This document shows, piece by piece, positions 10,011 to 47,335 of a DNA stretch of 47,651 nucleotides. The DNA is from an uncultured Thermoplasmata archaeon. GTDB lineage: Archaea > Thermoplasmatota > Penumbrarchaeia > JAEHCK01 > CBDVCJ01. A program made the position numbers and the translations under genes. Location: the NCBI GenBank assembly GCA_965372445.1, contig CBDVCJ010000001.1, positions 1 through 47,651 of the forward strand, given 5' to 3'. How positions within the stretch are numbered: the stretch's first letter is position 1; the number at the start of each line of letters is the position of its first letter. The notes below the pieces were generated by a model, which saw only the letters and a list, made by a program, of their open reading frames with translations, ran no database searches and had not been told where the DNA came from.

Positions 10011-10108
10011 CCCCGCATTAAAGTGCGGGGACTTTCAATTCAAATTGAATGTAACGTCACAAATGTGACGCACCGATAAATTAGGATATCTTTTTGGCCT
10101 GAAGGCCA
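10011..10108. repeat. Train of four different short hairpins between riboflavin synthase and ribH
   Basis: CCCCGCA-ttaaag-TGCGGGG (10011-10030). TTCAAT-tcaa-ATTGAA (10034-10049). CGTCAC-aaat-GTGACG (10055-10070). TTGGCC-tgaa-GGCCAA (10093-10108). The last resembles CCGGCC-tgaa-GGCCGG at 38031-38046. Confidence 0.8.
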
Positions 10109-10126
10109 AGGTTTCCGAATTGCTAA

Positions 10127-12987: not shown

Positions 12988-13992
12988 GTGTTTGTTCACT
13001 TTGGTCGAGGGGGATTTTGTGTGTATCCAAATTATTATGAACCGAGGACCGTCAAAGGTCTAAAATACATTAATCTTGCCTGGATTTTATATATTGTCGC
13101 TTTGGTAATATTATTGATAATGTTAATTGTGCTGATCCCTGTTCTTATGGAGGCATTTAATGATCCAGATGACTTTGATCCATCAAATTTCGGAATTTTA
13201 TTTGGAATTATAGCTGGTGCTTGTCTTTCTGGACTGTTTTCCCTTATTGTTGTTATACTATTTCTTATCGGAATTATATATATGTTGACAGGCCGCGAGG
13301 AATTTGGACCTCAACATTCAAGCCGTGTAATGTTAGGCTTCATCTTTCTGCTTATCGGTTTCATTATTCCGGTCTTTGGCGGGTTTGGAACGGCATTTAG
13401 TTATAGTGGTTATGGTAGCGCAATATACATAACCTCGGGATTTAGTATCGCGTCCAGCATTTTAATGGCTTTAGGGCTTGTGTTTTTAATTGAAAACCTA
13501 TTAGACGAAAAGTGGAAAAGAATATTATGGACCGGAGGTTTGATCTTTATAATTTTTAGTATAATCGCTGCCGCGATTAATATATGGCTCTTTACAAGCT
13601 TAATCTCTGATATTAGTGACCCAGAGACTTTTTATCTATCTGGTTTTTCGACTTTTACGTTGGTCTCTAGCGGTTTAACGGCAATGAATTTACTACCGAT
13701 CTTTATTTTTCTATTATGCTATCGCCAAGCCGAACAAAGGATCCGCACCGGCGAGCTCAAGGTAGTCCAACCTATGTATCCCCCGCCGCCCCCGCCCTAT
13801 TATTATCCCCCACCGCCGCCCGCCTATTATCCGCCACCTGCTTATGGCTATCCGCCACCTGCTTATGGCTATCCACCGCCAGCAGTCCCACCCAGCGGGC
13901 CTCCGGGCACGCCCCGCAAATGCCCGTCGTGCGAGAAAGAAGCACCACTCGGCATCCCAAGATGCCCGAATTGCGGGTTTTACTTCGGTTAA
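12988..13992 (+). CDS. Polytopic membrane protein with PPxY-rich tail and C-terminal zinc ribbon
   Basis: 334-aa ORF with a GTG start in the track (start uncertain) and multiple TM segments. The tail is PPPPPPYYYPPPPPAYYPPPAYGYPPPAYGYPPP, followed by CPSC-x11-CPNC. Confidence 0.7.
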   Translation: MFVHFGRGGFCVYPNYYEPRTVKGLKYINLAWILYIVALVILLIMLIVLIPVLMEAFNDPDDFDPSNFGILFGIIAGACLSGLFSLIVVILFLIGIIYMLTGREEFGPQHSSRVMLGFIFLLIGFIIPVFGGFGTAFSYSGYGSAIYITSGFSIASSILMALGLVFLIENLLDEKWKRILWTGGLIFIIFSIIAAAINIWLFTSLISDISDPETFYLSGFSTFTLVSSGLTAMNLLPIFIFLLCYRQAEQRIRTGELKVVQPMYPPPPPPYYYPPPPPAYYPPPAYGYPPPAYGYPPPAVPPSGPPGTPRKCPSCEKEAPLGIPRCPNCGFYFG

Positions 13993-14020
13993 TATTGGCA
14001 AAACTATCTGGTGAAAGCTC

Positions 14021-14482
14021 GGTCCTGAGTCCGTAGTCCTGCGTCCGATAAGTTGTGAGTGTTCGTGAGACTGTTTTTATATTGCAAAAGAGCGTAGGAT
14101 TGTTTCAAGAATACCATAATGCGTCGGATATGATGTCTTTTAATAGATGCGTGGGAGCTCCATTTGATTGCTGAGGGCGTTGGATTGCTCAAATAAACAA
14201 TAATCGTGTGAATCAAACGAAAAAACACTCGAACGCATTAAATTAGTCAGTAGGCAATCCAACAAATCAATTAAATGGCATTCAGGTCCCACGCCAATGA
14301 AAATAACTTGACGCTCCTACGCAATTTGGCAAACAGTTAACAATCCAACGCATATAGGTGAAATTTTATCTATCCCACATAATGACAATGTTACCACAAA
14401 CTCACAACTATATGGGCTCCCTGGACTCCCAAGACTCTTTCGCCTATCGCCCTTCGCCTTTCTCGTGGCAAACTCCAATCTT
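14021..14482 (+). repeat. Family-B phased inverted-array element, copy B1
   Basis: The core is bounded by AGTTGTGAGT (14051-14060) and ACTCACAACT (14400-14409). Forward cores start at 14065, 14094, 14123, 14151 and 14179. Reverse cores start at 14229, 14258, 14287, 14315, 14344 and 14373. Outer layers are a GAGTCC-type array (14021-14049 vs 14412-14437), a TTTCGCC array (14437-14465) and GCAAACTCCAATCTT (14468-14482). Confidence 0.9.
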
Positions 14483-14491
14483 GAAAAAAGA

Positions 14492-14953
14492 TCAGATGAT
14501 ATGTCCAACGATATCGGTCTGTTCTCGGTCACAATAAAAACAATTTAATCTGATCGGATCTTTTGAGGTAACAACACATTTACTCCCTATAGGTTCATTC
14601 TTGTTCGAAACGCAGTTCGGGTTCTCGCATTTCACTATACCCTCAATTATAGCCGGGAGCTCTACCTTATGCTTTTTCTCGACATTGAAATTACGGATAA
14701 TATTGAAAGTGGCATTTGGGGCAATTAACGCGATCTTATCAAGTTCATGAGGGTCCAATTCCCGATCCTCGATCTTGACAATATCTTTTTTATCCATTTT
14801 AGCTTTGCCGGAATCGACGTACATTGCCACACTAACGATCGACTCCTGTTTGCCGGTTATCCCAAGTATCTTCAACACTTTCAGTGCCATTCCTTTTTCG
14901 ATATGGTCTATTACGGTACCATTTTTTATGGGTGTAACTTTGAATTCTTTCAT
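14492..14953 (-). CDS. pyrI: Aspartate carbamoyltransferase regulatory subunit
   Basis: 153 aa. N-terminus is KVTPIKNGTVIDHI. The zinc domain is CENPNC...CFYC. Confidence 0.93.
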   Translation of the reverse strand: MKEFKVTPIKNGTVIDHIEKGMALKVLKILGITGKQESIVSVAMYVDSGKAKMDKKDIVKIEDRELDPHELDKIALIAPNATFNIIRNFNVEKKHKVELPAIIEGIVKCENPNCVSNKNEPIGSKCVVTSKDPIRLNCFYCDREQTDIVGHII

Positions 14954-15969: not shown

Positions 15970-16075
15970 CCAATTACCGAGATTTGCTAATAATGCTAAT
16001 CGCATTTAAAATTATCTGTTGGAATGCGGCGAAAGGATTGAGGATGAGATGAAGATTCGAGATTGCCTTTGGAAA

Positions 16076-16120
16076 GACGAAAGGCGAAAGGTAAATACTG
16101 CTTTCGCCTATTGCCTTTTT
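16076..16120. repeat. GGCGAAA/TTTCGCC hairpin (family C) inside a larger nested palindrome (about 16030-16240)
   Basis: GGCGAAAG (16083-16090) pairs with CTTTCGCC (16101-16108). Flanking layers are GATTCGAG vs CTCGAATC, and AAGGATTGAGGATG (about 16033-16046) vs CATCCTCCATCCTT (about 16225-16238). Confidence 0.75.
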
Positions 16121-16287
16121 TTGTGGACTCGAATCGGGAATCTGGAATCCAATAATTTACCCTCACATCACAAATGCCGAAGGGATTTGGGATGTTCATG
16201 CGGAGAACAAAGTTCGACGCATGCATCCTCCATCCTTTAACAATAAATCCCAAACATATATAACTTCAAATCTCAATTTGCATTTCG

Positions 16288-17986: not shown

Positions 17987-18046
17987 ACAATTCGTATTGT
18001 GAATAGTTTTATATATTTAAAATATTGCTTACTTGGGTTGGGAATA

Positions 18047-18543
18047 CCAATAGAAAGGCGAGAGACGATTATTTTAGTCATGGAGTCCGATAAGTTGTGA
18101 GTGTTAGTGGGACTGCTATTGTATTGCTAAATAGCGTAGGATTTTTTTAGGCATGCTATTATGCGTGGGATTGCCATTATAACGATAAAGGGCGTGGGAT
18201 TGTCATTATAACTATAAAGGGTGTTGGTTGCTTAATAAACATTAACCGTTGAAATCATACGAAAAAGCGCCTTAACGCATCAATAAAATGGCATTCAGGT
18301 CCCACGCCTAATGGCAATTCAATCCAAATCCTACGCCTTTTAACATGCAGGTAGTAATCCTACGCATTGTAGCGATGGGTATCTATCCTACATAATGATA
18401 AAAATGCCACAAGTACACAACTCACAACTATTAAGACTCGCGACTCACCACTCTTGACTCACGACCAATTAAACCAAACCATTTAACCTCATTTCGCCTA
18501 TCGCCTATCGCCTATTGCCTTTTCAATAGCAAACTCCAATCTT
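18047..18543 (+). repeat. Family-B phased inverted-array element, copy B2
   Basis: The core is bounded by AGTTGTGAGT (18093-18102) and ACTCACAACT (18420-18429). Forward cores start at 18107, 18136, 18165, 18194 and 18223. Reverse cores start at 18271, 18300, 18329, 18358 and 18386. Outer layers are AAAGGCGAGAGACGA (about 18055-18069) vs (TCGCCTA)x3 (18494-18514), then GCAAACTCCAATCTT (18529-18543). Confidence 0.9.
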
Positions 18544-18555
18544 AATAATAGTTAT

Positions 18556-18564
18556 CTTTATATC
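18556..18564 (+). promoter_or_regulatory. TATA-like box upstream of trmY
   Basis: The centre of CTTTATATC is ~30 nt before ATG 18590, which fits a very short or absent leader. Inference. Confidence 0.3.
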
Positions 18565-18589
18565 TCAATTAAGCATTAAAGCGTTTTAT

Positions 18590-23354: not shown

Positions 23355-24347
23355 ATGATGACGATACCCGATCTATACGAATATGTATACTATTTAACAC
23401 GCCAGATCCCAACGGGAATGGTAAGTTCCTACGGCGCGATCGCCAGTGCCCTGGGTGATATCCGTGCCAGCAGGGGCGTGGGCGAGGCCGAGCACCTTAA
23501 CCCCACAGCGGTGATCATGCCCTGTCACCGGGTGGTCTATTCTGACGGTGGGCTGGGTGGGTATGGCGGTACCGGTGGCCAGGGGCGTAAGATCGAGCTG
23601 TTAGCTACGGAAGGTGTTGATGTTAAAGACGGTAAGATCGTGGATTTTGAGAATGTACTTTTCCGCGATTTCAAAACCGAGTATCCGTTGAAACAGCTAC
23701 GAGACCAGCAGCTAAAATATAGAAAAAAGATAGTAACAAAAAACAGTTTAGAAGCACAAGCCCTCGTCAAAAAAGGCGGTTATATCGCAGGTATCGATGT
23801 CGCCTATTCGGGGTGGGACGGTTACGGTGCCTGTGCGGTTATGGGATACCCGGATCTTGAGTTAGAAAAGGTGGTGACTGCAAAAACCAGAATTAAACTT
23901 CCTTATGTCCCGACCTATCTGGGTTTCCGTGAATTTCCTGTAATAGAAAAGCTCGTGAACCAAACCAAAAAATTGAAGTTGGAACCGTTGGTTTTCATGC
24001 TCGACGGAAACGGTATACTCCATCCTTATGGCATGGGGCTGGCGTCGCATATGGGTGCTGCGCTGGATATTACTACGGTTGGTGCTGCCAAGAGACCTTT
24101 GTGTGGTAAGTTGGAGAACTATCCAGAAAAAGAGGGCGAGGCGAGTAAGATACTTTTTGAAGGGCAACATATAGGGTATGGTCTGAGATCGTCGCTCAAG
24201 GCCAAGAACTTGATCTATGTGTCGGCAGGGCATAATATCTCGAATAAGACCGCTTTAGATATCGTTACGAAGTGTTGCAGGACACGCATTCCGGAGCCGA
24301 TAAGGGAAGCGCACAAGGCGGCGAGTCGTTTCAAGGCCCAGGAATAA
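23355..24347 (+). CDS. nfi: Fusion of an O6-alkylguanine-DNA alkyltransferase domain and endonuclease V
   Basis: The N-terminal ~90 aa carry the active-site motif PCHRVV. The remainder has EndoV motifs GIDVAY, GFREFP, DGNGILHPYGMGLASHMG and VGAAK. Confidence 0.85.
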   Translation: MMTIPDLYEYVYYLTRQIPTGMVSSYGAIASALGDIRASRGVGEAEHLNPTAVIMPCHRVVYSDGGLGGYGGTGGQGRKIELLATEGVDVKDGKIVDFENVLFRDFKTEYPLKQLRDQQLKYRKKIVTKNSLEAQALVKKGGYIAGIDVAYSGWDGYGACAVMGYPDLELEKVVTAKTRIKLPYVPTYLGFREFPVIEKLVNQTKKLKLEPLVFMLDGNGILHPYGMGLASHMGAALDITTVGAAKRPLCGKLENYPEKEGEASKILFEGQHIGYGLRSSLKAKNLIYVSAGHNISNKTALDIVTKCCRTRIPEPIREAHKAASRFKAQE

Positions 24348-24393
24348 TCTGGATTTTTAACCGCTGAATTTTATTGTTATTTTTAATTTTCTC

Positions 24394-24556
24394 GCACCCC
24401 CATATATAAACCGCAGAGTACGCAGAGGACGCTGAATTAAGGTGAGGTCTAGGGACGCTGCCTAGAATTTATTGGGTTATTTTTACTAATAATTCCTACT
24501 TCAATATATATTCAGCGTTCTCAGCGACCTCAGCGGTTTAATAATGGGGGGCGGGG
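24394..24556. repeat. Nested palindrome, family D (CGCWGAG 9-mer arrays) with C5/G6 outer layer
   Basis: AAACCGCAGAGTACGCAGAGGACGCTGAAT (24408-24437) faces ATTCAGCGTTCTCAGCGACCTCAGCGGTTT (24510-24539). The outer layer is GCACCCCCATATAT vs ATAATGGGGGGCGGGG. Confidence 0.85.
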
Positions 24557-24647
24557 ATCAAAACTAAAAACCAAAAACTAATAAACGCAAATCACGAATC
24601 AGGGAAAAAAAATCAACGCACTTTGTCCCCTTAGCGGTAAAAAACCT

Positions 24648-25977: not shown

Positions 25978-26525
25978 GAAATCCCAAACTCAAAATATGT
26001 CAAGGTTACGTCCGACGGTTACGAAGCCCGTAGGGTTAGCTTGACGACATACAGATATTAAATCTAAAGTCAAGATAAGCCCGAGGTCTTTGGACGAAGT
26101 CCAAAGTCCGTAGGCTTGAAGTCCATAAGGACGAAAGCCCTCGGGCATGAATGTGCCCGTGGGGTTGAAGACTGGAAGTCGAAACCCCGAATGCATTGTG
26201 CAGGGCTCAATGCATGTGTCGAAGCTCGCGGAACGGTTTCGAATTAACTTTTTCAATAAACAAAAAAACCGCAGAGTCGCAGAGAGCACAGAGTATAAAC
26301 TGATATTATGAAATCTATTCTCTGCGTTCTCTGAGCCTCTGGTGTTGAAGTCCGTAGGACGAAACACCTCAAGTAAAAAAAGTTAAAATCACCAAAATAT
26401 CATTTTTTACTTGTGCGGTTGGTTTTTTTGAAAATAATCAAACACGAACTTCATGTTTCTCTAATCATTTTAAAAATTAGAAATTGGGATTTTGAGTTTG
26501 TTTTGGATTTTGAAATTTGGGATTT
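25978..26525. repeat. ~550-bp composite of nested palindromes and short hairpins
   Basis: The outer pair is GAAATCCCAAACTCAAAAT (25978-25996) vs ATTTTGAGTTTG...TTTGGGATTT (26489-26525). Inside are CGTAGGGTTAGCTTGACGA (26029-26047), CTTTGGAC-gaa-GTCCAAAG (26088-26106), GGGCATGAATGTGCCC (26143-26158), ATGCATTG...CAATGCAT (about 26190-26215) and a family-D palindrome (26267-26346). Confidence 0.8.
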
Positions 26526-37997: not shown

Positions 37998-38240
37998 TTA
38001 CTTGCCTCCAATAAATTGTCCTTATTACCCCCGGCCTGAAGGCCGGAGCCCATTATTTTTCATGTACCTAAATTACCTCATTAACTCAAATGTTTGAAAT
38101 TTGACATGATATTAATTTGCTCTTAACTCACTGGCCTAAAAGACCAGGGTTTCTAAATGTCTTGTAAACATATCTCCAATGGTATTTATTATTAGGGTTA
38201 GATTTTATTATTTAATGAATTTATCTGTTAAATAACACCT

Positions 38241-38684: not shown

Positions 38685-38863
38685 CCAAATAAACTAGTTT
38701 TTTTAGCTCCCATGTTTAAAATTAACATTAAGTAAAGGCGATTTTATTAATAATATTTACTATACCACTTTAAAGTTATTGGTAATATATAAAAGTTAGG
38801 GACTTATGTGATGGCATAAACCTGGATTTAATGTACTAATGTCTGTGGTTAGTAAGTCTAAAA

Positions 38864-39183
38864 AGTTGTGAGTGTCCGTGGGATTGCTATTTTTACGCCA
38901 GAGGATGTGGGATTGCTTTAAGGTTGCCATTTGATGTGGGATTACCATTTAATAACCTGATGGTGTAGGATTGCCATTATATTGATAAAAGACATTGGAC
39001 TGTTTAATTAAACAATAACTTCGTGAATCAAACGAAAAACACTCCAACGCATCAACAAAATGGCAATCAGTTCCCACACCCAATGGCTAAACTTGACAAT
39101 CCTACACAATTTAGCAAATAGTTAGCAATCCTACACCAATGGACGAAATTTTAACAATCCCACTTGGAGCTATTATAACAACT
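38864..39183 (+). repeat. Family-B phased inverted-array element, copy B3
   Basis: The left terminus is AGTTGTGAGT (38864-38873). Forward cores start at 38878, 38907, 38936, 38965 and 38994. Reverse cores start at 39043, 39072, 39100, 39129 and 39158. The right terminus is degenerate (AACAACT, 39177-39183) and abuts the arcS stop at 39185. Confidence 0.9.
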
Positions 39184-41053: not shown

Positions 41054-41218
41054 AATGAATCACGAGTGGCAAATGGTAATCATTGTTTTTATAATTTCTT
41101 TTTAAAATCCAATGTCGGGGTGCGAATGGCGAATACTATTGAAGAATATTTCCAATATTCAAATACTACCAATACTACCAATGAAATCCCAATGGCAAAA
41201 TTCCAAGACCCAAGCTTT

Positions 41219-41274
41219 AAAAATCCTGAAAGGATTTTTAATGCGAGGTAACTTGGCGTAGCAAGTTACCGCAG
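41219..41274 (-). repeat. Family-A double-hairpin module, copy A3
   Basis: The + strand reads AAAAATCCT-gaa-AGGATTTTT, then AATGCGAG, then GTAACTT-ggcgtagc-AAGTTAC, then CGCAG. Confidence 0.85.
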
Positions 41275-41278
41275 CCGT

Positions 41279-41334
41279 AAAAAAGCCGAAGGGTTTTTTA
41301 GGGCGAGGCAACTTGACGAAGTAAGTTGCCGCAG
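41279..41334 (-). repeat. Family-A double-hairpin module, copy A4
   Basis: The + strand reads AAAAAAGCC-gaa-GGGTTTTTT, then AGGGCGAG, then GCAACTT-gacgaagt-AAGTTGC, then CGCAG. Its hairpin 1 is identical to that of A5. Confidence 0.85.
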
Positions 41335-41494
41335 ATGCAAGTTCCAAACAAATCCCAAAATTCAAGTACCGAAATTCCAAACGACATTAAAATTTGGATT
41401 TTGGTATTTGGTTCTTGGTACTTGCATAATTTGGTACTATTGGAAATATTAATAAAACAAATAAATCAACGCGTTGCCCCACAAACCGTCACAT

Positions 41495-41977: not shown

Positions 41978-42844
41978 TTATGGTATTAGTCTGGCTACAT
42001 TCATATTAAGCTCGAGCCCCAACGCATTCGCCACCGGCGGACATTTGGTCCGCAATAAATACGCGATCGGCCGGTAATCGGTCTCTGAAAACGCTTCGAA
42101 ATTGCCCATGCCTTTGGATATTATCAGATCGACGGACTCGATCTTAGCCTGCAACTCAGGCGTGATCTTCTCGAAATCGACCCCGACAGCATAAGCATTG
42201 GTCGTTAGTACTTCGTCCACTTCAGCTTCTAATCCAAGCTTTTCAACATCTTCCATGGTAGCATCGTTAAGGATTGGCGCGCCTTTGACAATTAGTGTTA
42301 TATACACACCTAGCTTCTTAATCTCTCTGAGCAACAATTTATCGAAAATAATCTCGCCGCAGTTATCCGTGAAAAACAGGATTTTCGCATCCTTTTGGAG
42401 ATATTTTCTGATTTTATCAACATCATCAATATGTAATCCTTCCATACATAATTCATCGAATTTATGATCTAATGCTTCAGGGTTCTCAGCACTGCCTTCG
42501 ATCCCGAAATCGAGCACATTGCCCGCAATTGCACATACCACTGCCGCATGAAGTTTATCCTCGGCTTGTGCTAGGAATTGCTCGGCTTTAGGTAATAATT
42601 TCAGTGCAACGGTGTTGCACCTGGCTTTGATGTCGGTGTAAGGGTCGTTGGTGCCTAGGACTCCAAGCACTCTTTTATGGAGTTTAGTCGATACCTCGAT
42701 CGAGCATTTATCTTCTGAATAATCCTCGGCCAAAACATTACAGGCCTCTCTAATTACGGCTTGGGCTTTGGCATCATCCACGAGCGACGCCTCAAATACC
42801 GCACGCCTTAGCAAGCATGGTACACAATGTGATGTGATCTTCAT
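41978..42844 (-). CDS. DUF89 (ARMT1-like) damage-control phosphatase
   Basis: The N-terminus is MKITSHCVPCLLRR and the metal-site motifs DNCGEIIFD and SKGMGNFE are present. I prefer ATG 42844. The track start 42994 extends into the repeat region. Confidence 0.8.
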   Translation of the reverse strand: MKITSHCVPCLLRRAVFEASLVDDAKAQAVIREACNVLAEDYSEDKCSIEVSTKLHKRVLGVLGTNDPYTDIKARCNTVALKLLPKAEQFLAQAEDKLHAAVVCAIAGNVLDFGIEGSAENPEALDHKFDELCMEGLHIDDVDKIRKYLQKDAKILFFTDNCGEIIFDKLLLREIKKLGVYITLIVKGAPILNDATMEDVEKLGLEAEVDEVLTTNAYAVGVDFEKITPELQAKIESVDLIISKGMGNFEAFSETDYRPIAYLLRTKCPPVANALGLELNMNVARLIP

Positions 42845-42920
42845 TTTGGAACCTCGGAATAATATAAACCAGTGGAAGTGTAATATATCAATATATTTAA
42901 AATATTTTAATTCGTTAAAT

Positions 42921-43223
42921 AGTGGAAAGGGTAGGTTTGGGATGTGGCTTATTAAATTCCAAGAACCAAGAGACAAATTCCAAACAAATCCCAAGGTTCA
43001 AATACCAAGTTCCAAAAAAATCCAAATGTGAAGGCCTAAAGATTAATTAATTGGAATTTTGGAATTGGTACTTGCGGCAACTTACTTCGTCAAGTTGCCT
43101 CGCATTGAAAATCCTTTCAGGATTTCCAAAGTTGGAGCTTGTTTGGCTCTTGGAGGTTTGCTTCTTGGAGTTTTGCATTGCCCACATACCTCATACCACA
43201 CACCACCGCCCCATCTTACCACT
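42921..43223. repeat. ~300-bp nested palindrome enclosing module A5
   Basis: The outer arms are AGTGGAAAGGGTAGGTTTGGGATGTGG (42921-42947) vs CCCACATACC...CCACACACCACCGCCCCATCTTACCACT (43181-43223). The last 28 nt match the reverse complement of 19279-19306 at 26/28. Inner CCAAG/TTCCAAA arrays face TTGGA arrays. Confidence 0.8.
43073..43131 (+). repeat. Family-A double-hairpin module, copy A5
   Basis: GGCAACTT-acttcgtc-AAGTTGCC (43076-43099), then TCGC, then GAAAATCCT-ttc-AGGATTTCC (43107-43127), then AAAG. Confidence 0.85.
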
Positions 43224-43264: not shown

Positions 43265-44812
43265 TCAGATCTCCATATATTTCTTCTCCGGCCATGCCGG
43301 CCATCCAATATAGTACGCCAACTCTCTCAGGAACTCATTTGCATCATAATACGAGATCTCCCATGATTCTTCATGTTGGTGGTTTTCGATTATATCGCGG
43401 GTGGCCTCGAGCCAGACCGGCATATCCATAGGTACTGCGCCGAACAATAATGAAACCAACAGCCCATTCTCAAACCCCAGTGTCTCTCGCACCTTGGGTG
43501 CAGGTATGGGTTGGGGCTTAAGGTTCGCAGCGTGACTGATGACGCCCGTTGTTATGCCCTCACGCCCGCCGATAAAGTTCAACATCCCCGATAATTTTGG
43601 GAACCACTCGTCAGATACAAAATCGCTGAACTCGTCGAAATATTTACTTCCTTCAGGGTAAACCGGTATGCAGTAGATACTGGTGGCTCTGAACTCGTAA
43701 AGCGCCGAGGAAGATCCTCTGAACGTGAACAGTTCCAAGTTCTCCTCATCACTATTTTTATCTTCCTCAAGCTTCTCCAGCTGTATTACCCCGTCGCGCA
43801 TCTCTTTTAAAACCGTATCCACCTGGCCCACATCCTCGATATTCGGGTCGATCCATAGATGCGGCACAACGAACGGTCTTTCCGGCGACAGGCCGGCCAT
43901 AATATCAGGTATATCTATCGGCCCGAGCGGCCAATTGTCCTGCATCCAGCTCTGCTCTTTCGGGCTCGCTACCACATATTTCAAAAACGGATATAGTGCC
44001 TGGGATAACAACTCAATGGGGAATGGGTTAAGCACTTCTTCACGGATCTCTTTGCGTGCAAAGTCTTTCCAGCATTGTGCAAAGTGGTGGTTGCTCAACG
44101 GAAAGATCGCAATTCTGGAATGCTGGAATTCATATGAATGGTCGGTATCTTCGCGTTTAATAGTTTTATTTAACACAAGTCTGCAATCATGAGGTATTCT
44201 AGTGAAATCACGTTCTGAGATCCTGCGCGCGATCTTTAATAGTTTTCCCATGGTCGGCGCAACGGTCCGCGGCCCCTGTAGTGCAAGCGCCGAGCGTCTG
44301 GGCAAAACCGTGAACAGCCAAAAAACCGTTGAGGCAGGTAGAACATATCCAAGATGTTGTAGAACTTCAGGTGTAAGCCCACCACCGGTACCGCCATCCG
44401 CAGTGTGGATAATAACGACAATTGCCGGCTCGATCTCCGAGATGGGTTTGTAAAGGTTATCAGCCAGATTCTGCACCACCTCCTCATTGAGCACCGCTTT
44501 CGCGGCCCTGCCAGGTCTACCCCCCGCACCTCGAGACATGCCCCGGACGGTGCTGGATAACGAGATCTTTTGGGCTTGCGGGATGTTTTCGAAAAAGCCT
44601 TTGGTGGTCGGATCTGCGCTGGTGTCTACTATGAATGTATATGGTGTATCTGTATTTGCCCGAATGGCTTTGGTTAAACAGCTATATCTATCAAGTTCCT
44701 GGTGGTCAACAATCTTTTCCAAGCCTTCAGATAGTATCCGCGAGCCGCCGCCGCCGATACCGACGATGACGATCGATGGTAGCTTCCTGCCGCCTGACTC
44801 ATCATTAGCCAA
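43265..44812 (-). CDS. Divergent FtsZ/tubulin-superfamily GTPase with a unique ~190-aa C-terminal region
   Basis: 515 aa. VGIGGGGS (aa 17-24) is T1-like. GAGGRPGRAAKA (aa 95-106) is T3-like. HTADGGTGGG (aa 136-145) is the T4 signature. IFPLSNHHF (aa 235-243) is T6-like. GPIDIPDIMAG (aa 297-307) is T7-like. The order and spacing parallel the canonical FtsZ in this window. Confidence 0.8.
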   Translation of the reverse strand: MANDESGGRKLPSIVIVGIGGGGSRILSEGLEKIVDHQELDRYSCLTKAIRANTDTPYTFIVDTSADPTTKGFFENIPQAQKISLSSTVRGMSRGAGGRPGRAAKAVLNEEVVQNLADNLYKPISEIEPAIVVIIHTADGGTGGGLTPEVLQHLGYVLPASTVFWLFTVLPRRSALALQGPRTVAPTMGKLLKIARRISERDFTRIPHDCRLVLNKTIKREDTDHSYEFQHSRIAIFPLSNHHFAQCWKDFARKEIREEVLNPFPIELLSQALYPFLKYVVASPKEQSWMQDNWPLGPIDIPDIMAGLSPERPFVVPHLWIDPNIEDVGQVDTVLKEMRDGVIQLEKLEEDKNSDEENLELFTFRGSSSALYEFRATSIYCIPVYPEGSKYFDEFSDFVSDEWFPKLSGMLNFIGGREGITTGVISHAANLKPQPIPAPKVRETLGFENGLLVSLLFGAVPMDMPVWLEATRDIIENHQHEESWEISYYDANEFLRELAYYIGWPAWPEKKYMEI

Positions 44813-45033: not shown

Positions 45034-46839
45034 TTAGTAATTTCTGGGTGGGTTTTGCTGCTGGGGCGGTGGATAGTAAGGTTGCTGTGGCGGTTGCTGT
45101 GGCGACGGATAATAGGGTTGCTGTGGTTGCTGCTGCTGTGGCGGTGGATAGTAGGGTTGTTGTGGCTGTTGCGGTTGCGGCGGGTAATCCTGTGGCGGTG
45201 GTGGCGTCGGCTGGGTTGGCGGTTGCTGTGGTTGCGGCATTCGATCGCCTGGCGCCTGGTATTGCGTACCACCAGGTGCGCCCGGTGGGGGTTGCTGCCA
45301 TTGTCGTTTGCGGCTGCGCTTGCGCGCCCAGATCCCCAAAATACATATCACAATAACAATAATCGCGATCGTTAAAATTAGGAATGCCATATCTAATCCC
45401 GAAGCATCTTCACCATCACTGCTTTTCTTGGACGAGGCTTTGTAATCTTCATAATCCGCTTTGATCGTGTCGCGGGTCACTTCATTAAAGGTCTTCACCT
45501 CACTATATGTCTGGGGCTCCAGTTCATCTTCCTCCTCACCATTAGAAAAGGGGTCTTCAGAGTCCGAGCCCGGAAGCTCGACCGATATGAAATTCCCATT
45601 CTTGAAAGAATACCAATTTTCAGATCTTGCCATCGTATCTATCGCATTGGGTTGGTCCCCGGCCCCAAGATCTTCGGTACCAATAATCGAGGGGTCTTCA
45701 ATATCCATCTCTACATAGGAACCAGGGCTCCAATAATTGTTCAGGGCGTTATCGGAATATTCGTCTTCCCAATACCAATCATATTGCGGTCCGATCTTAT
45801 ATGCAGTTATTTCTGTATTATCGGGTAATATTTTGGTATCTTGCTCGATATTACGGAATGAATATTCGACCCATTCAGGCCCGATCGTCACGGGAAAGTT
45901 CAACCCCTCACCCAAAGTGATATCGCCTTTCTCGGTCTCAGGCGCGCTTTCCGGCATATCGATCATCATATCATATGAAATTGTGCCTGAAAATTCATTC
46001 AAAATGATCGTCATTTGAGAACTGGCGTCCCAAGATTCGTAATCCTTGATCGGAAAATCAAAAATATCCAAAGGCGGGTTATAAATAATATCATAAGACG
46101 CTTTCCAATCGGTTATAGTTTGTTTCAGGGTAAAGTACATCCTCACCTCGTCTGAAGTGCCAGGGTCGGTTGGCTGCTCCTCATTCGGCACCTCCTCGCC
46201 ACCTCTTACATCACCTTCGAAAAGATCTTCAAAGAAATAGCCACTGTAGGTTATATCGTACAGAAAATCCACATCCGAATTCAGCACGAAATCGAAGCTG
46301 CCTTTTGCAATTGCAAGTTCGTCAACAGTGAAATAGATATGACCTGTCAGTGCCAGATCGAACCACATATAACCCTCGATCTTATAATCCATCCGCATAT
46401 CCTCTAACATTTCAGATATATCATCTTCAGATTGACGAGTTCCGTACTGTTCCATCATACTCGCGAAATCCATGCTCATTACAATATCCATCTGGGCAGC
46501 CATCGCAATATATTCTTCATAATATACATCATAACAAATATATTCAGTTTGACCGACCGTGACCTTCGTATTATCATCTTGAACCGTCAATGCACGATAA
46601 TAGCCCATGTTGCCTGAAACCACCATTTTGGATACGTCAAAATATTCGGTTTCCATATCATCGAAAAATCCATCTTGAGTAAGTTCATCCTCGTAGCCCA
46701 TACACCACTGGTCGCCAATCTCCCAGATCGGTACATCGTTCTCTTCTGGTACTACTATTATTCCTTGTACACTTGCACCTGCTAGCATGAAAAATGCTAA
46801 TGCTATACAAATCACATATATTGACCTCATCTTCATCAC
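45034..46839 (-). CDS. Single-pass surface protein with P/Q/Y-rich cytoplasmic tail
   Basis: 601 aa with a signal peptide, an ~480-aa acidic ectodomain with no recognised domain, and a TM helix FLILTIAIIVIVICILGIWA followed by RKRSRKR. The tail has three QQPYYPPPQQ-type repeats. Confidence 0.75.
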   Translation of the reverse strand: MMKMRSIYVICIALAFFMLAGASVQGIIVVPEENDVPIWEIGDQWCMGYEDELTQDGFFDDMETEYFDVSKMVVSGNMGYYRALTVQDDNTKVTVGQTEYICYDVYYEEYIAMAAQMDIVMSMDFASMMEQYGTRQSEDDISEMLEDMRMDYKIEGYMWFDLALTGHIYFTVDELAIAKGSFDFVLNSDVDFLYDITYSGYFFEDLFEGDVRGGEEVPNEEQPTDPGTSDEVRMYFTLKQTITDWKASYDIIYNPPLDIFDFPIKDYESWDASSQMTIILNEFSGTISYDMMIDMPESAPETEKGDITLGEGLNFPVTIGPEWVEYSFRNIEQDTKILPDNTEITAYKIGPQYDWYWEDEYSDNALNNYWSPGSYVEMDIEDPSIIGTEDLGAGDQPNAIDTMARSENWYSFKNGNFISVELPGSDSEDPFSNGEEEDELEPQTYSEVKTFNEVTRDTIKADYEDYKASSKKSSDGEDASGLDMAFLILTIAIIVIVICILGIWARKRSRKRQWQQPPPGAPGGTQYQAPGDRMPQPQQPPTQPTPPPPQDYPPQPQQPQQPYYPPPQQQQPQQPYYPSPQQPPQQPYYPPPQQQNPPRNY

Positions 46840-46907
46840 TCCTCACCAACCATATAATATTGTACATAGTATAAATCAATACTGGTATTTAATTGTTTTT
46901 CTAATTA

Positions 46908-47223
46908 TTCGGGATTCGGGACGCGGGATTCGATAACTTAGAAGTTTGTAGTTTGTGGTTTGTAGTTTGCAGTTTCCCCCCGCCCCCCATTCAACCGCTG
47001 AGTACGCTGAACTCGCTGAAAAACCAATTGTGGGGGTGTAGCGGGTCGGGTGTAGGGTGTATTGAAATGTCCCGACACCCTATACGCTATACCCAACACC
47101 CCCTCAATTTAGCTAATAATTCAGCGTTTTCAGCGTCCTCAGCGGTTAGAACTTTAAAATGAATTAGTTACATGTCCTTTGTGTTAAAAGCCGACTCCCG
47201 AGCCCTGAACACCGATTCCCGAA
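46908..47223. repeat. ~315-bp nested palindrome (families D, AGTTTGY, GGGATTCG)
   Basis: Layer 1 is TTCGGGATTCGGGACGCGGGATTCG (46908-46932) vs CCGACTCCCGAGCCCTGAACACCGATTCCCGAA (47191-47223). (AGTTTGY)x4.7 is at 46943-46975 and CCCCCCGCCCCCC at 46976-46988. The D arms are 46993-47020 vs 47119-47147. The inner GGGGGTGT...ACACCCCC layer is 47030-47105. Confidence 0.85.
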
Positions 47224-47335
47224 GTAATTATAAATTAAAATCCTCGACTTTCTTCAACTGGCTAGAAGTGAATATATGGCCGGAGTGAGACTTATATTAT
47301 TGACTTTATAAATTGTGAAAAGTTTTTTAATCCAT

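Follow-up and report, generated by a model that had tools for sequence, protein, structure and literature searches.

The spacers between the genes of an uncultured Thermoplasmata archaeon (Thermoplasmatota) are pervaded by layered palindromes, and two of these spacers, 22 kb apart at 24.4 and 46.9 kb of the window (the entire contig of 47,651 nt), contain homologous composites of short-unit arrays. The explanation we prefer, with a probability of roughly 55%, is that the composites are stacks of nested non-coding hairpin repeats, a miniature selfish DNA resembling REPINs (hairpins of repetitive extragenic palindromic, REP, sequences) or miniature inverted-repeat transposable elements (MITEs), and that the core at 46993-47147 is a gene-less copy of a hairpin which occurs in both prokaryotic domains. 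In this model the core hairpin, with a small palindrome in its loop, would lie inside a lineage-specific palindrome made of a G/C clamp and a heptamer array, which itself would lie inside a GGGATTCG-type palindrome. The spacer 24348-24647 would hold a diverged copy of the same composite seated in the loop of an older CGCTGA hairpin.

The homology of the two composites is readily seen. The initial annotation of this DNA had stated that the right arms match at 27 of 29 positions, and self-BLAST of the window reproduces this (24510-24538 vs 47119-47147, 93.1% identity, E 8.7e-5); the left arms, also said to be homologous, align at about 23 of 28 positions (46993-47020 vs 24408-24437). An inverted match of 74.7% over 75 nt (24511-24580 vs 47020-46949, E 7e-6) spans the arm, the C6GC6/G6CG4 run and the AGTTTGY/AAACTAA array, and the homology crosses non-repetitive junctions, e.g. 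CCCCGCCCCCCATT..AACCGC. The four arms can be aligned in register, and in three cases a C-run and an A/T-rich linker come before the arm. Both composites are also palindromic by self-BLAST: 46993-47147 matches its own complement with 71% over 160 nt, and 24380-24437 matches 24570-24510 in inverted orientation with 75.8%.

The arms are built of 9-nt units, and these arrays, already described in the initial annotation, are detected by Tandem Repeats Finder (TRF) together with arrays of ATTCGGG, AGTTTGT and GGGTGTA. The two-unit pattern TCAGCGnnnTCAGCG, allowing up to two mismatches, has 13 matches against 2.06 expected, eight of them in the four arms of the composites, and AACCGCWGA has nine matches in the window against 0.59 expected, six of them at the ends of three spacer hairpins; these counts exclude chance as the origin of the arms. 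Inverted termini of the type AACCGCWGA...TCWGCGGTT are located at 24409/24530 and 46993/47139, and also at 24359 and 26267. When the window is taken together with its relatives (the contigs L127-L138, with 74-89% protein identity and about 58 kb in total), 11 CGCWGA-type unit pairs are found where 0.075 would be expected. Each of the six window arms consists of three units, as does the left arm of the copy in L135, the right arm of which has one unit, and such a constant length is unlike a free-running microsatellite. Folding with dinucleotide shuffles gave z scores of -9.8, -7.9 and -7.5 for the three named spacers; the first value belongs to 46900-47235 (-130.9 kcal/mol), in which the outer GGGATTCG array is paired with 47190-47224.

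The repetitive look of the sequence is the one thing that speaks for chance low complexity or an assembly artefact. This possibility is refuted by motif counts far above those of shuffles, by the self-BLAST homology and by an independent assembly, made from another sample, that has the same hairpin at the orthologous position; related elements are moreover found in several independent assemblies. It has practically no chance of being correct.

The order of layers given earlier holds for the left side at 46.9 kb (GGGATTCG array, (AGTTTGY)n, C6GC6, CGCTGA arm) and, as a mirror image, for the right side at 24.4 kb (TCAGCG arm, G6CG4, AAAACTA array, CGCAAATCACGAATCAGGG). Two corrections should be made. 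The right half of the 46.9-kb spacer has no mirrored C-run and AGTTTGY layer, and what it does have is the partner of the outer array (47190-47224). At 24.4 kb, degenerate mirrored layers are present on the left, and there is a further outermost pair AACCGCTGAA (24359-24368) / TTAGCGGT (24631-24638). From the conserved order a composite element with a defined grammar had been postulated. The structure is certainly non-random and the order partly recurs, but the two spacers share it because both hold diverged copies of one composite, and they are not independent sentences of a grammar. The shared order is best explained by common descent and nesting rather than by free combination of modules. 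A third relative had been proposed at 26267-26346; with its AACCGCAGAG terminus and its arms of three CGCAGAG/CACAGAG units each it is real, but it is weaker and was missed by BLAST. The components of the three loci are listed in Table 1.

Table 1. Components of the two composite spacers and of the third relative, in window coordinates.
Feature	Position	Strand	Remarks
Outer left layer, ATTCGGG/GGGATTCG array, about 3.7 units	46907-46932		TRF; pairs with 47190-47224
(AGTTTGY)n, 4.7 units; on the minus strand AAACTRC directly 3' of the G-run	46943-46975		TRF; homologous to 24560-24586; fits the rule of a G-run followed by heptamers
C6GC6 clamp (minus strand G6CG6)	46976-46988		Homologous to 24546-24556
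Left arm AACCGCTGAG-TA-CGCTGAA-CT-CGCTGAA, three 9-nt units	46993-47020
Hairpin centre (98 nt), itself an inner palindrome of GGGTGTA-type heptamers	47021-47118		TRF 47034-47061 and fold
Right arm ATTCAGCG-TT-TTCAGCG-TC-CTCAGCGGTT	47119-47147		27/29 vs 24510-24538
Right partner of the outer array, GCCGACTCCCGAGCCCTGAACACCGATTCCCGAAG	47190-47224		Predicted fold with 46907-46932
Outermost left terminus AACCGCTGAA of older small hairpin	24359-24368		Preceded by T5 at 24354-24358; orthologous to L135 5193-5258
Degenerate mirrored T-rich array and C-run, TTTTATTGTTATTTTTAATTTTCTCGCACCCCCA	24369-24402		Inverted self-match and fold
Left arm AAACCGCAGAG-TA-CGCAGAG-GA-CGCTGAAT	24408-24437
Centre of the 24.4-kb hairpin; unrelated to the 47-kb centre	24438-24509
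Right arm ATTCAGCG-TT-CTCAGCG-AC-CTCAGCGGTT	24510-24538
G6CG4 (24546-24556), AAAACTA array (24560-24586), CGCAAATCACGAATCAGGG (24586-24604)	24546-24604	+
Outermost right terminus CTTAGCGGT, then A6 (minus strand T6)	24630-24644		3 nt past the stop of the 179-aa gene
Third, degenerate relative AACCGCAGAG-T-CGCAGAGAG-CACAGAG / 24-nt loop / CTCTGCG-TT-CTCTGAG-C-CTCTGGTG	26267-26346

The spacers of the relatives are of the same kind as those of the window and share some of their modules (G-runs, AATCTCGAATC arrays, TTGGATTTTGAAATTTGGGATT arrays and CGGTTTCGAAGCTCG palindromes). At orthologous spacers the elements are gained, lost and replaced: the palindromes of the RibH/FtsZ, FtsZ/PpsA and TrmY spacers differ between L127, L128 and the window. 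The window and L127 (for ftsZ also L128) have a conserved promoter-proximal sequence upstream of ftsZ and ppsA, and the distal part of these spacers carries an unrelated palindrome in each genome, or none. The spacer between EndoV and the convergent gene for a 179-aa protein is 300 nt long in the window (24348-24647) and 66 nt in L135, and does not exist in L138, in which the genes overlap. The 66 nt of L135 are a single CGCTGA hairpin, TTAAACCGCTGAGGACGCAGAGGGCGCTGAA-tatt-TTCGGCGATTAAAAAAA (AAACCGCTGAGGACGCAGAGGGCGCTGAA-tatt-TTCGGCG), and the ends of this hairpin correspond to the outermost pair of the window spacer, TTTTTAACCGCTGAA (from 24354) / CTTAGCGGTAAAAAA (to 24644). The layered palindrome of 260 nt is thus nested in the loop of an older CGCTGA hairpin, and this nesting accounts for the layers.

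The clamp and the heptamer array around the CGCWGA arms also occur together elsewhere. Among 13 bipartite G-runs (G5-7 N1-2 G4-7) in spacers of the window and of five related contigs, 11 have immediately 3' of them a G-poor heptamer array that begins with A[ACT]CT, e.g. AAACTGCAAACTAC, AACTAAAATCTCGAATCTC and ATCTGATATCTGAAATCC, and five copies have the family end ...GAATCCAC. Plain G5 runs in the window and the related contigs show no ordering rule and no consistent G-poor sequence on their 3' side, and the G-run pattern has zero matches among viral contigs. Complete copies, e.g. L135 6690-6960 and L136 4100-4300, are symmetric: array, C-run, inner content, G-run, array. The inner content consists of CGCWGA arms in the two window copies, of CNCAGA-type arms in L136, where heptamer array, C-run and arms at 4100-4300 have the same order, and of GGTTAGG arrays in L135 and at 31.3-31.7 kb of the window. 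We regard this as a lineage-specific family of palindromes that end in a heptamer array and a G/C clamp, and that both host other hairpins in their centres and sit in the centres of others.

The composites are not isolated in the window. TRF found about 20 arrays of 7-nt units, of many different sequences and nearly all in spacers, and a reading of the spacers, in the related contigs as well, showed most long ones to be layered imperfect palindromes of 7-9-nt unit arrays. At least six dispersed repeat families were found by self-BLAST, with coordinates in spacers or in short open reading frames (ORFs) without Pfam match. Folding of the 22 window spacers of at least 80 nt, with 15 mononucleotide shuffles per spacer, gave z scores of -2.7 or below in 14 of them; coding controls ranged from -2.2 to +2.6. 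Palindromes are present in spacers of all three kinds, convergent, tandem and divergent.

Such strong folding could mean that the hairpins function as RNA, in 3' untranslated regions or between genes, by blocking read-through, insulating the promoter or stabilising the messenger, and that selection acts for any strong hairpin while the sequence turns over. In agreement with this many hairpins immediately follow a stop codon and precede conserved promoter-proximal sequence, and in some copies G.U-type pairs are found on one strand (CGCTGAA/TTCAGTG in L119, CGCTGAA/TTCGGCG in L135). The sense strand folds better in all eight structured same-strand spacers; this asymmetry was considered as a sign of selection at the RNA level, but it is confounded by the GC skew, which is negative over nearly the whole contig, so that the minus strand folds better in most structured spacers regardless of gene orientation, convergent and divergent ones included. 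It does not discriminate. Layered palindromes also fill the divergent promoter-promoter spacers 16006-16287 and 17987-18589, and orthologous spacers vary from 0 to 300 nt. Rfam 15 has no match at gathering score, with far sub-threshold matches to generic hairpin models only. To our knowledge termination in Archaea does not need a hairpin, and archaeal RNA polymerase terminates at oligo-T. Oligo-T is present between each stop codon and the 24.4-kb palindrome, namely T5 at 24354-24358, 7 nt past the EndoV stop codon, and T6 (24639-24644) and T8 on the minus strand; this palindrome is therefore probably mostly untranscribed. A function as RNA is an unlikely explanation of the layered spacers.

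Arms of the same design are present in bacteria. A scan with the pattern CCGCTGAGnnCGCTGAnnnCGCTGA, using one genome per species, gave 116 loci, but this pattern is too loose and most loci are chance matches in coding sequence of high-GC genomes. Spacer hairpins with the arm design were found in Phycisphaerae, Planctomycetota (L058), Anaerolineales (L083, L109) and Bacteroidales (L096), and in a metagenome-assembled genome (MAG) of a "delta proteobacterium" (L017, L033, L046). The high-GC Phycisphaerae MAG JBDKRA01 has the arm in L001, L012, L034 and L054. The arms of L001 are perfect over 28 bp and enclose GGAAT-type arrays. In the copies of this MAG (L001 627-771, L012 243-425, L034 and L054) such short arrays are layered inside CGCTGAG arms and the centres differ from copy to copy, thus layering is not peculiar to the archaeon. 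In Rivularia (L040, beside heptamer arrays) and Saprospiraceae (L081) a single spacer array was seen and no partner arm was found. A pattern with 24 specified bases matched 10 metagenome contigs of 53-64% GC, and the inspected matches are in unit arrays outside long ORFs. The recurrent termini are (G/A)AACCGCTGA...TCAGCGGTT(C/T). At the central W the two arms often do not pair (CGCTGA opposite TCTGCG, or CGCAGA opposite TCAGCG), and this is also the case in the 24.4-kb element of the window. Of the 10 viral matches to the arm pattern, nine encode Ala-Glu repeats and the tenth (L148) is a hairpin in a spacer; plasmids and phages gave no similarity match. As judged from these pattern matches the arm type spans Archaea and several bacterial phyla. 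Beside two of the arrays other repeats were noted: a GTGAAAC x5 array, GTGAAAC being half of the parS palindrome TGTTTCACGTGAAACA, lies next to a CGCTGAG array in L118 (7848-7885), and L124 has two complete parS-like sites in the vicinity of another CGCTGA array (around 1700-1800, reverse strand as printed).

A gene was found next to these hairpins. In L123, L096, L083 and L073 they directly abut an ORF of 125-135 aa of the GxxExxY family. The ORFs of the first three match NCBIfam TIGR04256 and Pfam PF13366 (PDDEXK_3) with E 1e-29 to 1e-42, and the ORF of L073, seen by tblastn, shares 72% identity with the protein of L123 (E 1.5e-58). Upstream of its ORF L073 has four tandem hairpins, and downstream it has one. 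The first CGC-TGA unit of the downstream arm provides the stop codon of the ORF in L073 and L123. Since these loci had been reached by way of the arm pattern, an independent test was made with GxxExxY proteins picked on protein similarity alone (n=4), and flanking or enclosing hairpins were found in four out of four. L149 and L154 have the standard termini, and L157-160 have the variant CCCGCAGA...TCAGCGGGA. The ORF of L149 is enclosed by GAACCGCTGA and TCAGCGGTTC, and L157, L159 and L160 each have two to four tandem hairpins on each side of it. Hexamers have a density of 3-38 per kb up to 450 nt from the ORF, and of 0-1.9 per kb farther out. By these comparisons the arm type is specifically linked, in bacteria, to one gene family with a nuclease fold.

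The D, E and K of the PD-(D/E)xK pattern (D...ExK) are invariant in the GxxExxY family, and no related solved structure was found by sequence. A tblastn search of plasmids with GxxExxY gave a single match. A survey of the superfamily lists PDDEXK_3 as a family of unknown function with multiple transfers between Bacteria and Archaea and mixed clades (PMC3424549). In L153 (1-1500) cas1-cas2 and a short CRISPR-like repeat (GTCCAAACCAACCGAATTCCGACTAAGGAATTGAA) are closely followed downstream by a GxxExxY gene, and a CGCTGA hairpin starts directly at the last repeat. The longest recorded contig of many GxxExxY proteins is only 0.5-3 kb, which is expected if flanking hairpins break assemblies. According to the description of NCBIfam TIGR04256, GxxExxY genes are often present in several copies per genome, a further difference from the REPIN/RAYT system.

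Alternatively, the palindromes may have grown in place without mobility. Slippage would then make the arrays, template switching between the arms of quasi-palindromes would mirror them, and similarity between loci would come from local duplication, gene conversion or convergence. Indeed, 7-9-nt units form arrays throughout this DNA, and some arm pairs are perfectly complementary including the spacers between the units (L001), as templated correction would give. PMC4679880 names heptamers, after Mrazek 2007, as the commonest long simple repeats in prokaryotes and ascribes them to slippage. Growth in place is difficult to reconcile with homology across non-repetitive junctions 22 kb apart, with three units in each of the six window arms, with whole composite units that differ at orthologous sites, with the same 9-10-nt termini in Archaea and several bacterial phyla, and with the specific association with one gene family; we find it improbable.

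Another possibility is that the hexamers at 9-bp spacing, not the hairpin, are functional, as DNA-level arrays of protein binding sites (iterons) of a centromere-like, nucleoid-organising or origin type. Ribbon-helix-helix proteins, e.g. omega of pSM19035, bind heptad arrays. The hexamers are conserved and the intervening spacers are variable and often unpaired, and the central-W mismatch (CGCAGA/TCAGCG, CGCTGA/TCTGCG) recurs in several lineages; both would fit with such sites. On the other hand more than 15 different unit sequences are found in 47 kb, no orc1/cdc6, par or other partner gene is adjacent, the sites are too many for origins, and the elements are not conserved at orthologous positions. 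Binding arrays as the whole explanation are very improbable.

The selfish hairpin model proposes that the elements spread by insertion into hairpin centres or other spacer DNA, which would be tolerated or preferred landing sites. A structure-specific nuclease acting in trans, for which GxxExxY is the candidate, would recognise the hexamer arrays, and replication slippage would lengthen or shorten them. The hairpins are possibly mobilised by the GxxExxY nuclease. A more far-reaching version, which we consider tentative and rather doubtful, is that GxxExxY and CGCWGA hairpins form a second REPIN-like partnership, independent of RAYT (the REP-associated tyrosine transposase) and moved between the domains, in which the hairpins would serve as substrate or binding array, gene-less copies would multiply, and a preference for hairpin centres would give layered spacers.

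Several observations weigh against the selfish hairpin model. A tblastn search detected no GxxExxY ORF, either in the window or in its relatives, and the window copies are for this reason classed as ORF-less (solo) derivatives and not as full units. No partner gene was identified for the layers of heptamer array and G/C clamp. An autonomous partner element with the same ends was not found, no excision footprint or transposition intermediate was seen at the element ends inspected, and no target-site duplication was seen at the ends of L135 6680-6990 or of the window copies by reading, which was not systematic. The 2-3-nt spacers between the hexamers are often non-complementary between the arms, which fits protein-binding iterons equally well. 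CGCWGA loci are few, three in 47 kb and one in the relatives. The L001 and other bacterial loci and the metagenome contigs were found by a pattern derived from the window, so that their similarity is partly by construction. Finally, one viral GxxExxY locus has the same GTCTGAA...TTCAGAC ends with GGATT-type units in place of CGCTGA; the unit sequence may differ between GxxExxY clades.

Small palindromic spacer repeats, heptamer arrays and nested miniature elements are of a kind already known. MITEs, among them SM1-4 of Sulfolobus in the Archaea, are likewise small and non-coding with terminal inverted repeats, diverged copies, presence or absence at a site, and nesting. Terminal inverted repeats and several dispersed copies are found here, but no matching transposase and, at the ends read, no target-site duplication was identified, and the inverted repeats are built of tandem short units. 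Cyanobacteria have heptamer arrays, the short tandemly repeated repetitive (STRR) sequences reportedly described by Mazel in 1990, and Nostoc is said to have small dispersed repeats (SDR; Elhai, 2008). They share with our elements tandem heptamers in spacers, and very small elements within heptamer arrays which are nested in copies of themselves; they differ in that our host is archaeal, the highly iterated palindrome HIP1 is not enriched, the units are others, and the layers are mirrored parts of one long palindrome. Direct repeats of the heptamer TAACTGA are shared by Beggiatoaceae, Cyanobacteria and Bacteroidetes, and horizontal spread by an unknown mechanism is suspected (PMC4679880). These are also arrays of one short unit in spacers of distant lineages, but they are direct, located just upstream of starts and proposed to be translational regulators, whereas the arrays described here form inverted hairpins tied to a nuclease family.

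A close comparison is with REPIN/REP and RAYT, where short extragenic inverted repeats that fold as hairpins are dispersed, are found in clusters beside a single small transposase-type gene, and grow in clusters by insertion into or next to copies; the SDR of Nostoc are cited in the same paper (Bertels & Rainey 2011, PMC3116915). The bacterial GxxExxY gene would be the analogue of this small nuclease-type gene. The partner here has the PD-(D/E)xK fold of PF13366 and is not a Y1 HUH transposase; no transposase domain, and hence no RAYT, was found among the 38 window ORFs scanned. The arms are three hexamers at 9-nt spacing in contrast to the 16-mer REP, and the termini are shared across domains, whereas REP sequences are diverse and co-evolve with their own RAYT (PMC3116915). 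An ORF inside a long stem, as in L149, is also known from the intervening sequence of Coxiella 23S rRNA, likewise a small selfish element, which carries the small S23p ORF (PMC4990558). Unlike this, the window copies are ORF-less and located in spacers outside rRNA. As far as we know most Archaea lack RNase III, which excises 23S intervening sequences.

Some other identities were considered and rejected. HIP1 (GCGATCGC) occurs once in the window against 0.84 expected and the genes are archaeal, which rules out a cyanobacterial STRR/HIP1 origin. The units are 7-9 nt, contiguous and inverted, and not direct repeats of 24-48 nt with unique spacers as in a CRISPR array. An intrinsic terminator does not fit with T-runs outside the palindrome (24354-24358, 24639-24644) and arms followed by TAATAA/AGAACT. 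Against archaeal origins with origin recognition boxes (ORB) stand the lack of orc1/cdc6 among the annotated ORFs and the dozens of such palindromes per 47 kb. The defining features of integron attC sites are absent.

The genes of the contig include an ArcTGT with DUF5591 and PUA domains, PyrBI, a C25 peptidase, an EndoV-MGMT fusion, the methyltransferase gene with Methyltrn_RNA_2 (PF04013) that we call TrmY, and riboflavin-pathway genes (two DMRL_synthase, one CTP_transf_like and one DHBP_synthase); no tRNA or transfer-messenger RNA was found in the window. EndoV (23355-24347) carries a fused N-terminal 6-O-methylguanine-DNA-methyltransferase DNA-binding domain, and the fusion is common to hundreds of relatives. 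Beside the canonical FtsZ there is a 515-aa protein with a weak match of 31.4 bits, below the Pfam cut-off, to the Tubulin/FtsZ GTPase domain (genes 43265-44812, 8235-9416). Tandem repeats in coding sequence at 45048-45202 (periods 36-75) and 13771-13874 (periods 21-27) encode Pro/Gly-rich stretches of low complexity in two proteins without assigned function, of 601 and 334 aa.

Other repeats were seen in the window, by self-BLAST and by reading. A family of three copies of about 350 nt, 66-71% identical and in one orientation, is found at 14034-14409, 18075-18422 and 38855-39163. The copies are large palindromes with a conserved centre, and their arms contain several GTGGGATTGCCATT-like 14-17-mers about 29 nt apart; the first copy overlaps the short ORFs 14004-14228 and 14317-14532, which are therefore probably spurious, and there is no orc1/cdc6 gene near the family. 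Inverted repeats with 84% identity, 1.8 kb apart (41204-41348 vs 43058-43141, and also 41338-41381 vs 42974-43016), bracket an ARMT1-like gene (41978-42994) and three small ORFs, and their GCGAGGCAACTTGACGAAGCAAGTTGCCGCAG-type module recurs at 1666-1726. Tiny hairpins GGCCTGAAGGCC / GGCCTAAAAGACC are present in several spacers (10090-10110, 38030-38050, 38130-38150), and this hairpin is absent from the orthologous RibC/RibH spacer of L127.

In the collection of papers searched, none contains the unit strings or discusses the flanks of GxxExxY genes. Three points appear to be undescribed: that an archaeon has this layered architecture, that the arm is conserved across domains, and that the arm is linked to PDDEXK_3 genes. 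For annotation the signature would be AACCGCWGA, hexamers at 9-nt spacing and TCWGCGGTT. If the proposed partnership is true, PF13366 / TIGR04256, a large and widely transferred family of unknown function, would gain a testable partner in a hairpin with a hexamer code, which may explain the short recorded contigs of many GxxExxY genes. It would be a second system of a nuclease and a miniature hairpin besides RAYT/REPIN, spanning both prokaryotic domains, and it would explain the layered, repeat-filled spacers in some uncultured Archaea, Planctomycetota, Chloroflexota and Bacteroidota.

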